This document shows positions 21,201-27,200 of a stretch of 27,655 nt of DNA, piece by piece. Made by a program: the position numbers. Origin of the DNA: a virus. Lineage: Duplodnaviria > Heunggongvirae > Uroviricota > Caudoviricetes. How positions within the stretch are numbered: position 1 is the stretch's first letter; each line of letters starts with the position of its first letter. The stretch covers positions 1 to 27,655 of the IMG/VR virus record IMGVR_UViG_2537562192_000021, one strand, 5' to 3'.

Positions 21201-24200
21201 ACTGCGCGGCCTTTTTCGTATTGCGGGCTGTAGTCTTCCTTCTGTCATTGTCCTTTAACTTCCGGACCTCAGCCCGCTCTTTATCTGATTCAGTACACTA
21301 TCCCGGCCGGGAGGATTCATGACATTTAAACACTATGACGTGGTCAGGGCGGCGTCGCCGTCAGACCTTGCGGATGCGCTTGCTCAAAAAATTCGTGAAG
21401 GATGGCAGCCATACGGCGGGCCGTTTTCTTCGTATACGGATGATGGCGCAGCACTTATTCAGGCGATTGTCGCAGAAGGTGATGTGAGCACACCTGTGTT
21501 GGTGAAGCCGTCGGATGGAGAAGGCACAGTTATCAGCACCACCAGCGAACCGGAGTATTACTTTGTTGTGGTTCTGGCGGGGCAGTCAAACGGCATGTCG
21601 TATGGTGAAGGCCTTCCGCTGCCGGAGACATATGACCGTCCGGACCCGCGTATTAAGCAGCTGGCGCGCCGCAGTACGGTGACACCGGGAGGTGCCGCCT
21701 GTAAGTATAACGACATTATTCCGGCGGACCACTGTCTGCATGATGTGCAGGACATGAGCCGTCTTAACCATCCGAAAGCGGACCTGTCAAAGGGGCAGTA
21801 CGGAACCGTGGGGCAGGGACTGCATATCGCCAAAAAACTGCTGCCGTTTATACCGGCGAATGCGGGCATTCTGCTGGTACCTTGCTGCCGTGGTGGTTCA
21901 GCGTTCACCACCGGAGCCGATGGCACATACAGTGACGCGAGTGGTGCCTCGGAGAATTCAACCCGCTGGGGTGTGGACAAGCCGCTGTATAAGGACCTTA
22001 TCGGTCGTACAAAAGCCGCGCTGGCGAAGAACCCGAAAAATGTGCTGTTTACCGTGGTGTGGATGCAGGGGGAATTTGATTTTGACGGCACGCCCGGAAA
22101 TCACGCAGCACAGTTTGGTGCGCTGGTTGATAAATTCCGTGCAGACCTGGCGGATATGGCAGGCCAGTGCGTCAGTGGCTCTGCTGGCAGTGTTCCCTGG
22201 ATATGCGGGGACACGACGTATTTCTGGAAGCAGAAGAACGAATCCACGTACCAGACGGTGTACGGCAGCTATAAAAACAAAACGGAAAAGAATATCCATT
22301 TCGTACCGTTCATGACGGATGAGAACGGGGTGAATGTGCCGACGAACAAACCGGAAGAAGACCCGGACATTCCGGGTATCGGGTATTACGGTTCGAAATG
22401 GCGTGACAGCTCAGCCACCTGGACGTCACAGGACAGGGCGAGCCATTTCAGCACCTGGGCACGCCGGGGGATTATTTCCGACCGTCTGGCAACGGCGATT
22501 CTGGTGCACGCCGGGAGAACCGCTGAATTCATTACCGGAAAACAGCCTGATATGGTGAAGCCCACCGTACCTTCCGGTGAAGGTCCGGAGAGAGAGGCGG
22601 AAGCCCCGGTCAGTAACCGAACCCTGATGAGTCTGCTGGCATCCGGCGAAGACCTGGCATCACAGGGCTGGCGCTATTATCACAAACCGGCGGGCGGAGA
22701 CAGTGTTAACAAAAACATTGCTGAAGCGGTGGTCAGTGATGCGGGGGCTACGGGAGGTAAGGCTCTGCAACTGAACAAACCGGAAAACCACATCTGGTTT
22801 CTGGAGCATGATGCAGCCGGACAGGGTGCGGAGTTACTGAAGAAGGGCGGACGTGTGAGCGTACGGTTTAAGTTGCCGGGTTCACTGGTGCCGAATCAGT
22901 TTGCCCTGGGCATTTACTGGCAGTTGTCGTCCCTGCCGGAGGGGGTGATGCTGTCAGGAGAAGGTAACGATATGCTGATGTCTTTCTTCCTGCAGACGGA
23001 TACGACGAACCTGAACGCGATGCATCACAGGAAGCCGAATGCGAAGCTGGATACATTCGGGGTCTTTGATAACGGATGGCACACGCTGGCTTTTGAGTTT
23101 GCCGGAAACAACAGCATTCAGGTGACACCAGTACTGGATGAGAAACGGGGAGCGGCGTTCACACTGGTGAAGTCACCGGCATCGGGGGCGGTGGACAAAC
23201 TGCAACTGACCGATATATCAAAATCGGCGACGTATACGCTGCTGATTGACAGCATTGCGGTGGAAGTGAACAGCACAGACACTGCGGTATGATAAAAAAA
23301 AGCCGCCAGCGACAGGAATGGACGCTGGCGGTGCTAATACCCATGGAAATACAAAAGCAAGATTCTTTCGTGCAGAGCCTTCTTTTTAATGAAAACACTT
23401 CCTGTTGTCAATAATAACGGTAAGAAATTAAAAAACGCCAGTTGCCGTAAGCGACTGGTGGGGAAGCGCCATGGACACTCCGAAGAAATGGTGCAGTGAG
23501 TGTTTTTAAATGAAAAATATTCTTATTATCAATATGTGTCAGCGGTATTTGCGGGGTAAAAAAATCCACCAGTAAGCACAGGGAGAAATGCGCCATGCTT
23601 CTGGTGGAAATGCAACTGCGGTGAGGTTTTATTGTTATATTGGTAAATTTTCTACACAAAAGCGATTCTTAATGTCAACACGTTTTACAGGGAATTGTTG
23701 AGCACTCAGAGTAACTACACGAGGCTGTCAGTGGAGCACTGGCGGCCTTTTTCATGTTGTGAGCTTCCGGATTGCGGGAGACGGGGTATGTACCAGATGG
23801 AAAAAATCACAACAGGTGTGTCATACACCACGTCAGCGGTGGGAACGGGCTACTGGTTCCTGCAGTTGCTGGACAGGGTTTCCCCGTCTCAGTGGGCGGC
23901 AATAGGCGTGCTGGGGAGTCTGCTGTTTGGTCTGCTGACATATCTGACGAACCTGTATTTCAAAATCAGAGAAGACCGGCGTAAGGCGGCACGGGGAGAG
24001 TAGGTGATGAACCATGAAGAAATGAATCAGCGCTTCAGTCGTCTGGAAAATGAAATTGCTGAACTGAATAAAAAACTGTCGGCGCTGATGCCTTCTGAAG
24101 ATGCAAACAAACGCCGCGATGAGCAGTTTGCTGCGTTTGACGATTATTGTCGGAAAGTGATGAGCAGAAATCTCGCAGAGTGTTTCAGTATTCATAATGA

Positions 24201-27200
24201 TAATTGCAGTGAGCTGGAATGGGAGTGTAACCGGCCATCCTTTGTTGTATCCGGTGATGACGGGAAAATCACCATATCAGAAAATGGAAAAGTAACACTG
24301 CCATCGCACCAGCACAGTGAGACGCTCATTGAATTTGCCATTGATTACCTGAAGAACAATAAAAAACAGGGGCTGATGCAGCGCATTGGTCGTTGCATGG
24401 GGTATCTGCAGGTAGCCGCTGAGATTGAAGCGCTGGCCAGTGGTGCGGACAAGGATTCAGTTGTGCGGGAGGCACTTCTTCGTGATTTTGATAATCCGCC
24501 TTTTAAAAAAGTGCCGGCTTACTGGCTTCATCCCGGACTGACTTATCTGAAAGTGCGTATTTAGTGGGCCTGGGACAGCGGCTGAATATTTAATATATCC
24601 ATGAACACAAAAATCAAATACGGCCTGTCGGCTGCCGTTCTGGCGCTGATTGCCGCAGGGGCTTCTGCGCCTGAAATCCTCGACCAGTTTCTGGATGAAA
24701 AAGAAGGCAACCACACCACGGCATACCGTGATGGCGCGGGTATCTGGACCATCTGCCGTGGAGCCACCCGGGTGGATGGTAAGCCTGTGATTCCTGGCAT
24801 GAAGCTGTCGAAGGAAAAATGCGACCGGGTTAACGCTATCGAACGGGATAAGGCGCTGGCATGGGTGGAGAAAAACATCAAAGTGCCACTGACTGAACCC
24901 CAGAAAGCGGGGATCGCGTCATTCTGTCCTTACAACATTGGCCCGGGTAAGTGTTTCCCGTCGACGTTTTATAAACGAATTAATGCAGGCGATCGCAGGG
25001 GAGCGTGTGAAGCGATTCGCTGGTGGATTAAGGACGGTGGGCGTGATTGCCGCACACGTTCAAATAACTGCTACGGACAGGTTATTCGTCGTGACCAGGA
25101 AAGCGCATTAGCTTGTTGGGGGATAGATCAGTGAGAGGAGTAACCGCGATTATTTACGCTCTGGTTATCTGCATCATCGTCTGTCTGTTATGGGCTGTTA
25201 ATCATTACCGCGATAACGCCATCACCTACAAAGCGCAGCGCGATAAAAAAGCCAGAGAGCTGGAGCTGGCAAACGCAACTATTACTGATATGCAGGTGCG
25301 CCAGCGCGATGTTGCTGCGCTCGATGCAAAATACTCGAGGGAATTAGCCGATGCGAGAGCTGAAAATGAAACTCTGCGTGCTGATGTTGCCGCTGGTCGT
25401 AAGCGCCTGCGGATCAACGCCACCTGCCACGGTACCGTGCGTGAAGCCACCAGCACCTCCGGCGTGGATAATGCAACCGGCCCCCGACTGGCAGACACCG
25501 TTACACGGGATTATTTCACCCTCAGAGAGCGGCTGATGACGATGCAGAAGCAACTGGAAGGGGCGCAGGAATATATCCGTACTCAGTGCATTAAGTAGTC
25601 TTTTTATTATCCGGAGGATATATGAAGAAATTACTGGTAACCGTAAAGCCTTTTCAGGGAACAATTCCGTTCCGTGTTTTGCAGCCTGGTCGTGTTCTTG
25701 TTGAAGGTACGTTCAGTGGTAAATGTACGCAATCATACTCCCGGGTCTTTCGGGTGGATGCCTCGAATGAAGAGCTAACCGTGGAGTGTGCTGTGAATGC
25801 CGCTAAATGCCGCAATGGTATCGGCTGCATTACAGCCAGTGTGTTGAGCGACCTTATTATCCATGGCGCGGTATTGTCGCCGTATTCCCGTATTAACAGA
25901 GACCGCAGCCCGACAGGGAGACTCCTCTGCGCGAGTGTGCGGGGATAATCAAAAACGATACACACCGGGGTTTACCGCGTTAACGGAGCGCGGCGTTGTC
26001 CCCTCATGGTCGCTGGTCCGGTGCGATGGTGGAAGAAACCGGACTACATTAAAAATGATAACCATTATCATTTTTTGCGGGTCCTCCTGGTGGGGTGGGT
26101 ATGAACACGGGGCGGGCGGCGCGGAAAAAGGCGCATTTTTTGATTTTTATGGCACCATCACCACCAGTGTAAATCATTGATATATACCATAATAAAAATT
26201 TTTAGTGTCGAAGTTGATTGTTTTTGTTCATCACTGGCGTGTATTTACATAATTTTCAGGGGAAGTTATGGATCGTGAATTAAAAAATCTGCATCTGAAT
26301 ATTTCCCAACTGGCTGCATTATCCGGTGCTCATCGACAGACTGTCGCGGCTCGGGTAAAAACATAAGCCCAGCCGGTGGTCATGAGAGTAATCTCAAACT
26401 GTACCGACTGACAGATATCCTTGCCGAGCTGATGAAAGCTCCTCTGCCTGTAGATAACGAGGAAATGGATCCTCATGCGCGTAAAGCATGGTACCAGTCA
26501 GAACGTGACCGACTGAAATTTGAGCAGGAAACCGGTCTGCTCGTGTCAGTCAGTGATGTCAGGCGGTCGTTTTCTGTCGTGGTGAAAGCGATAGTTCAGG
26601 TACTGGAAACCTGGCCTGACCGGCTGGAGAGGGACAGGGGGTGGACCGCATCACAACTGAATGAAGTACAGATTGTGTTGATGAGATCCGCGACACACTG
26701 GAAAAGGCAGTCATTGACTGTTGTGATGAGGCCGATATGTGAATCAGGTGAACGAGAGCCATAGCCGCGCATCCGATATCTGGCGCGAAGTGGCCTCGCT
26801 GTTTCGCCCACCTGGCCGGTTACCAGTAGCGGAAGCCATCAGGCGTTATATGCGGGTACCACGGGGAGCCAATACTTCCGGTCCGTGGGAGTCATCGCTG
26901 ACGCCCTATATGATTGACCCCATTAATACATTATCAGCCCGTGAATATGACGCGGTGGTGTTTGTGGGACCTGCGCGAACCGGGAAAACCGAAGGGCTGA
27001 TTGATGGCTGGATTGTGTACGGCATCATCTGTGATCCGGCGGATATGCTGGTGGTGCAGATGACCGAGACAAAGGCGCGTGAGCATTCCAGAACGCGTCT
27101 TTCCAGGACGTTTCGCCACAGTCCGGAGGTCAGTAAGCGCCTCAGCCTTCCCATAATGACAACAACGTCCACGACAAAATGTTTCTTGACGGCTCATTCC

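Follow-up and report, generated by a model that had tools for sequence, protein, structure and literature searches.

The stretch analysed here, hereafter the window, comprises all 27,655 nucleotides (nt) of the IMG/VR virus record IMGVR_UViG_2537562192_000021 (Caudoviricetes), and it represents the late region of a lambdoid prophage of the Shiga toxin 2 (Stx2) type. Between its holin gene S and its lysozyme gene R, with the spanin gene Rz next in line, lies an open reading frame (ORF) of 185 codons, which we refer to as the slot ORF or slot gene (Table 1). This ORF begins 4 nt after the holin stop codon (TAG, 24001-24003) and ends with a TAG at 24562-24564. Its product would comprise 186 amino acids if the GTG at 24004 were counted. 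A preliminary description of this DNA had reported a soluble protein of this length encoded between holin and endolysin. The reading frame, the Pfam matches of its two neighbours and the hydropathy of the product all agree with that report, as the highest Kyte-Doolittle mean over 19 residues is 0.76, indicating that no transmembrane segment is present.

The slot ORF is a real gene and not a chance ORF. This judgement is based on an identical coding sequence annotated by RefSeq in Escherichia coli SI-NP020, on the occurrence of the exact protein in 379 public contigs (where it is named "hypothetical" or "phage protein" every time), and on pairwise dN/dS values of 0.19-0.29 against three diverged homologues, with dS of up to 0.24. 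At the DNA level, Megablast detected the ORF in 879 of 5426 complete E. coli genomes, with at least 80% of its length covered in 233 of the 879. The substitution pattern suggests purifying selection, looser than that acting on S (dN/dS 0.05-0.08) and R (0.03-0.12) in the same loci.

The signals around the slot ORF provided insights into its expression. A Shine-Dalgarno (SD) sequence, GGGGAGAG, is embedded in the 3′ coding end of the holin gene, so that the translational coupling to the holin proposed in the preliminary description is well founded. A consensus scan, which is weak evidence, revealed no promoter-like site on the plus strand within 23200-25800 and no terminator after the slot ORF. 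Hence, the promoter and terminator of its own that would define a moron were not found, and the start of the gene is SD-coupled to S. Because the SD lies within the holin gene and no separate promoter-like site was seen, the slot gene is expected to be expressed in lytic growth only, alongside the holin, its product being soluble and cytoplasmic. Neither hydropathy nor the predicted model displayed a signal peptide-like, transmembrane or periplasmic segment. The protein has an isoelectric point of 5.8 and a net charge of -4.1; for the 16 terminal residues of the holin tail, the charge is about +2.8.

The preliminary description did not recognise the family of this protein, and hmmscan likewise assigned it to no Pfam family at E ≤ 0.1, nor was there an NCBIfam match. 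In particular, PF07041 (DUF1327/YdfR) is not detected in the slot protein, while its long relative P0034 scores 138 bits against that family. Meanwhile, the whole protein matches phrog_1085, a PHROG of unknown function, with an E value of 1e-110 over profile positions 117-296 of 296, which means that the first 116 positions (the DUF1327 part) are missing. With 98% of the query covered, it is also 80-87% identical to proteins of 287-296 amino acids named "DUF1327/YdfR family", over their C-terminal two thirds. Homologue searches and alignments resolved this family into three modules, namely A (DUF1327/YdfR, about 100 amino acids), B (a coiled coil of about 60) and C (a conserved domain of about 110). 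The full architecture is A+B+C, as found in Stx2_95 and in many E. coli entries of 287-296 amino acids labelled "DUF1327 domain-containing" or "YdfR family protein", and the window copy is B+C. Other combinations occur in gp05 of phage 86 (A+x+C), in PhiR12_1 (A+B) and in Stx2_499 (B followed by unrelated sequence); module B alone is common to DUF1327+B proteins such as that of PhiR12_1 and to Stx2_499.

An initial AF2 model that drew on 21 close homologues reached a pLDDT of 56 and was unusable. Once 10 distant homologues were added (those later named were from Salmonella), the pLDDT rose to 82, with values of 80-96 over residues 78-185. In this model, a disordered linker separates B from C, and the C domain is predicted to comprise a hairpin (residues 79-92), a further strand (95-97) and four helices. 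Two motifs stand out in module C, GRCMGxLQVAAEIE and DFDNPPFK..P..W..PG..YLK.R. Sequence and fold searches with this module returned no Pfam family and no fold match, and a profile search of PDB sequences with the slot protein returned coiled-coil noise only (E of at least 0.28).

The B module of the window protein is only about 61% identical to that of the A+B+C forms, from which we infer that B+C is an established variant, not a fresh deletion. A recent loss of DUF1327 from an A+B+C gene was considered and rejected on account of this same divergence. In four diverged E. coli genomes, the B+C form retains an intact frame of 185 codons whose start and stop lie at the same positions. This stable, selected variant without DUF1327 is a modestly new element of the family.

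Two further loci illustrate the plasticity of these genes. In E. coli O178:H19 2012C-4431 (L008 762-1866), a single S-R slot holds a 185-amino-acid B+C gene, a separate DUF1327 ORF of 75 amino acids and a reverse-strand ORF; since other loci carry these modules as fusions, the split arrangement suggests that the slot has undergone recombination. In strain 131 (L180 1353-2243), RefSeq annotates a truncated pseudogene, "YdfR family protein, incomplete", beside an rrrQ-type lysozyme. The YdfR-like family therefore decays in some prophages, such as that of this ST131-type genome. In several of the sampled human and sewage E. coli genomes, strain 131 among them, the match falls under no annotated product.

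An S-R-Rz order with nothing between S and R fits the lambda-like cassettes of textbooks, and the preliminary description had considered the slot gene unusual on the premise that lambdoid phages normally leave this interval empty. The comparison of S-R content across phages that it suggested yielded the contrary result. We collected 80 IMG/VR loci whose holin is at least 97% identical to that of the window (the best 80 of at least 596 matches, a sample which leans to holins most like the window's), 71 of which included R in the fetched stretch. The slot was occupied in 60 of these 71 cassettes (85%) and empty in 11, where the gap between S and R measured 1-4 nt. The occupants were A (35 cassettes), B+C (11), A+B+C (8), A+C (4), A+B (1) and B (1). 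A second IMG/VR set, gathered with the C domain, displayed a gene between S and R in 80 of 80 loci. RefSeq and GenBank also annotate "YdfR family" or "DUF1327" coding sequences in this position in phage 86, PhiR12_1 and ST131-type genomes. Therefore, a YdfR-like accessory family usually fills the holin-endolysin slot of P21-type cassettes (pinholin plus signal-anchor-release (SAR) endolysin) in E. coli lambdoid prophages. The position of the window gene is ordinary, and its lysis cassette does not represent a novel type; instead, the S-R slot is a modular hot spot that is filled in most related prophages.

The same sample showed that the slot gene is optional, as the same S and R alleles also occur without it. 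Phage 933W has a complete S-R-Rz set with S and R adjacent and the slot empty. Furthermore, holins that are at least 97% identical, and identical in many loci, occur with empty, A, B+C and A+B+C slots, so that slot content and holin do not co-vary.

Slot occupancy is associated with a change in the start of R. We compared the junctions of the window, 933W, phage 86 and PhiR12_1, and inspected the 20 nt upstream of R in the 11 empty-slot cassettes. In 933W, R starts 4 nt past the stop of S (L172 2717-2723) and uses the same GGGGAGAG SD. This holds for the empty cassettes as a whole, since R is coupled to the GGGGAGAG of the holin in 11 of 11, its product mostly starting with MSRK(L/F)RYG. In all 60 occupied cassettes, R is preceded by an AT-rich leader devoid of an SD, and its N-terminus reads MN(T/A)KI(K/R)YG, or MSAKI- in six of them. 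The window R is 95% identical to that of 933W, and the differences are found mainly in the first 6 codons. The RNA fold z-score of the window spacer is +1.6, meaning that it is less structured than its shuffled versions; a structured RNA element between the slot ORF and R was rejected for this reason. At the level of sequence, these junctions show that the slot gene takes the SD that serves R in slot-empty phages, and the leader left to R is compatible with SD-independent initiation on open, A/U-rich RNA. As the slot gene captures the SD and leaves R without one, the ratio at which S and R are translated probably shifts when the slot is filled, irrespective of what the slot protein does. The association of slot occupancy with SD-less, instead of SD-coupled, initiation of R is modestly new.

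Outside these cassettes, the family is narrowly distributed. Searches yielded 152 homologue matches among 5.8 billion proteins, all named ones from E. coli, and 41 among 1.84 billion representatives; in the latter, and in a profile search with the C domain, named matches came from Escherichia, Shigella and Salmonella only. Among the representatives and the profile matches there was no informative domain fusion except that with DUF1327. A genome contig collection holding one genome per species contributed 3 loci only. The C domain, with neither a family nor a fold assignment and confined to three enterobacterial genera, is likewise modestly new.

The Salmonella homologues are 26-37% identical to the slot protein over their whole length, with a strongly conserved C domain. 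They consist of a coiled coil and the C domain, with a DUF1327-like head that Pfam detects weakly (E 0.004), one member having PF07041. These genes are located between Q and the holin gene, near HicAB or ParE toxin-antitoxin genes. Most adjoin PF16080 holins, P0243 adjoins a P21-type holin, and one homologue from a metagenomic contig adjoins a GH108 endolysin. Hence, the constant feature of the family is a place in the late operon beside the lysis genes, and neither a position between S and R nor a single type of holin. Downstream of most Salmonella homologues lies, in convergent orientation, an ORF of about 105 amino acids, which belongs to no Pfam family and is 44% identical (E 2e-34) to gp06 of phage 86. 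This ORF lies on the minus strand in phage 86 (L001 2588-2902) and, among the Salmonella prophages and one metagenomic contig, at L174 4309-4626 and L182 495-812. It is absent from the window and was found in 4 of the 71 sampled E. coli slots. The YdfR-family gene and this ORF may form a conserved two-gene module.

Table 1. Features of the late region of the window (positions of the window; strand and evidence where given)
Feature	Position	Strand	Description and evidence
Q	18805-19227		Antiterminator-like ORF
tRNA-Arg	19397-19473		Anticodon TCT; directly upstream of the stx2-type operon
stx2A	19565-20524		319 amino acids from ATG 19565
stx2B	20537-20800		87 amino acids only
NanS-p/YjhS	21319-23292		Esterase
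S	23788-24003	+	P21-type class II (pin)holin, 71 amino acids; PF04971 (E 9e-33), PHROG holin families
Shine-Dalgarno	23993-24000	+	GGGGAGAG, inside the holin 3′ coding end, 6 nt before the slot-ORF ATG
Slot ORF	24007-24564	+	185-amino-acid soluble protein; DUF1327-less member of PHROG 1085 / long YdfR-family proteins
Module B	24007-24198	+	Residues 1-64, acidic, predicted helical hairpin/coiled coil; AF2 model mc39da192e671, helices 3-27 and 31-64, pLDDT ~74-89
Module C	24238-24561	+	Residues 78-185, conserved globular domain; predicted three-stranded beta sheet and four helices
R leader	24565-24600	+	36-nt spacer, AT-rich, no Shine-Dalgarno, predicted unstructured (...GAATATTTAATATATCC-ATG; ...AATATTTAATATATCC-ATG)
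R	24601-25134	+	Lysozyme with N-terminal SAR-type/SAR-like hydrophobic segment (YGLSAAVLALIAAGASAP); PF00959 (E 1.9e-24)
Rz	25131-25598	+	i-spanin; PF03245 (E 2e-49), PHROG 13; start overlaps the R stop
Rz1	25351-25536	+	o-spanin embedded in Rz; lipobox LVVSAC; ORF list

The holin carries a dual-start motif, MYQMEK, with starts at Met1 and Met4, and RefSeq labels it "class II holin family protein" in an identical locus. In L005, the closest genome, RefSeq gives the name "lysis protein" to the gene at the coordinates corresponding to Rz. R and Rz overlap at 25131-25134, leaving the R-Rz slot of the window empty, and an antirepressor gene (ant) occupies this slot in 933W (L172 3254-4248) and phage 86 (L001 3564-4565). 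The R-Rz and S-R slots of the cassette vary independently. Upstream, some 40 nt before the holin start (23721-23759), a terminator-like hairpin of 13 pairs, including 7 G-C pairs, is followed by TTTTCATGTT. It is situated in a 495-nt interval after nanS-p in which no gene is annotated; relatives have small DUF1378 and DUF826 genes there. After Rz, a 108-amino-acid ORF extends over 25622-25948, for which RefSeq annotates a hypothetical protein of 74 amino acids in L005, with the same start and a length of 225 nt including the stop.

Based on these findings, we tentatively postulate, with a probability of about 0.4, that the slot gene encodes an optional late cytoplasmic accessory protein that acts on a host factor, outside the lysis machinery. 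The evidence is consistent with the accessory gene carried along on the late transcript that the preliminary description suggested. The predicted model (a helical hairpin followed by a small alpha/beta domain), the lack of a transmembrane segment and the acidic isoelectric point give the protein a cytoplasmic, non-enzymatic appearance. With low confidence, we propose that the B+C protein would be an oligomeric adaptor active in the cytoplasm at a late stage, with its C domain binding the host factor. That factor may share a pathway with the DUF1327 module, to which C is often fused. Such a shared pathway is plausible because C is joined to A in some proteins, encoded apart from A within one slot in E. 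coli O178:H19, and elsewhere found alone. Within the host-factor reading, a link to RNase E or to RNA is doubtful, with a chance of perhaps one in four.

Several points weigh against this host-factor reading. The RNase E link would be a case of guilt by fusion, considering that the window protein does not possess DUF1327, the sole module with interaction data. Searches of profiles, folds and homologues returned no relative that gives a biochemical clue. Selection on the slot ORF (dN/dS 0.2-0.3) is looser than that on S and R (0.03-0.12), and truncated, recombinant and pseudogenised copies are common. The constant siting of the family beside lysis genes in two genera could mean a role related to lysis. 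In addition, a literature search covering DUF1327, ydfR with holin, and morons of Stx lysis cassettes yielded neither a functional study of the slot gene nor expression data for it. The papers on Stx-phage genomics and flanking regions that were examined make no mention of it, and the only functional report for the family found in the literature searched concerns the DUF1327 of K-12 YdfR.

The constant siting beside lysis genes in E. coli and Salmonella speaks for a rival reading, in which the protein, or the mere presence of its gene, would tune the firing of the pinholin and SAR endolysin; a lysis-timing regulator was among the roles that the preliminary description suggested. The holin, through its basic cytoplasmic tail, could be a binding target of the acidic slot protein, or the gene could uncouple translation of R from that of S, in agreement with its coupling to S and with the loss of the R SD from occupied cassettes. 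The discussion of the YdfR paper (PMC13232886) cites a genetic screen in which ydfR was flagged for envelope integrity, which points in the same direction. However, a core or holin-specific lysis role is argued against by 933W, which dispenses with the gene, by the lack of co-variation with near-identical holins, and by the Salmonella-type homologues, which stand upstream of the holin and beside the unrelated PF16080 holin or, in one contig, a GH108 endolysin. Besides, the holin already encodes its own antiholin through its dual start, and the slot protein does not have the membrane or periplasmic topology of an antiholin. The timing-regulator proposal is thus weakened, and we regard it as unlikely. 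According to the preliminary description, its reading would be refuted by absence or disruption of the gene in close relatives, if without effect on lysis; both absence (933W) and disruption (the ST131-type pseudogene) were observed, at the level of genomes.

The patchy presence, shuffled modules and relaxed selection of the slot gene are also typical of genes engaged in arms races. It might therefore be cargo for conflict with no lysis role, such as a late anti-defence, superinfection or host-killing effector, originally one half of a two-gene module with the convergent partner. The retention of this partner between Salmonella prophages and phage 86, the proximity of HicAB and ParE genes in the Q-holin interval of Salmonella copies, and the restriction of the family to prophages of three genera are consistent with this. 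Yet PADLOC-DB 2.0 gave no match (the best, BrxC with E 0.037 and 9 bits, is noise), the partner is missing from the window and from 67 of the 71 sampled E. coli slots, and late expression is poor timing for anti-defence. A gene with no promoter of its own should also be silent in the lysogen, where exclusion and defence genes act; together, the lack of its own promoter and terminator and of a defence-model match speaks against a moron or defence gene of the classical type that is expressed in the lysogen. We hold the conflict reading to be as improbable as that of lysis timing. Less probable still is a functionless remnant, meaning an N-terminally deleted fragment of a YdfR-family gene that survives inside an essential operon. 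The absence of the N-terminal domain of the family, the frameshifted or pseudogenised copies in related slots and the dispensability of the gene in 933W would be expected of such a fragment. Nevertheless, purifying selection and the conserved frame in four diverged genomes argue against it. So do the recurrence of the B+C layout at the same distance from S (including 11 of the 71 sampled viral cassettes), the divergence of its B module from the A+B+C forms, and a C domain conserved down to the distant Salmonella proteins.

Should the host-factor reading hold, its most far-reaching version would be that the C domain is an undescribed fold of Escherichia, Shigella and Salmonella lambdoid prophages which, alone or with the RNase E-binding DUF1327, re-programmes host RNA turnover or another cytoplasmic target late in the lytic cycle. 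We consider this version very improbable. The slot gene is part of the late, Q-dependent transcript of an Stx2 phage, where it comes right after the toxin, nanS-p and holin genes. If the RNA-turnover version were true, the stability and yield of this long transcript, which carries stx2, would be affected, and a slot gene that varies between strains could then influence how much Shiga toxin is produced or how large the burst is. The modular slot, the captured ribosome-binding site of the endolysin and the RNase E-binding family module would, if confirmed, help to explain when lysis and toxin release take place.

The gene itself is already known as a catalogued hypothetical protein, and its slot-mates are annotated as YdfR family. 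Dedicated lysis regulators include the dual-start antiholins S21-71 and lambda S107, LydB of P1 and RI of T4. Like these, the slot gene is located in or next to the lysis cassette and expected to be co-expressed with the holin. In contrast to them, its product has no membrane or periplasmic segment, does not co-vary with the holin, and bears no known sequence or fold similarity to them. The Salmonella prophage homologues (P0198, P0124, P0243 and P0308) are closer, as they share the C domain, and usually the coiled coil and a DUF1327-like N-terminus, within a late operon that adjoins the lysis cassette; they differ by their place in the Q-holin interval and by the convergent gene of about 105 amino acids that the window lacks. 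K-12 YdfR, of the Qin prophage (PF07041), occupies the same slot as the window gene, as do the long RefSeq "YdfR family proteins" of 268-296 amino acids, all starting 4-5 nt after the holin stop. K-12 YdfR (103 amino acids) is essentially DUF1327 only, described as a DUF1327 module plus a helix, and has no domain in common with the DUF1327-less window protein. In two-hybrid and co-purification assays, its residues 1-72 bind the N-terminal, catalytic half of RNase E. RNA is recovered together with YdfR, and overexpression of this protein changes the transcriptome little (PMC13232886). Meanwhile, PHROG 1085 is matched by the whole window protein with only the last part of the profile, and the long YdfR-family proteins of Stx and lambdoid prophages carry the coiled coil and C domain of the window protein next to a DUF1327 module.

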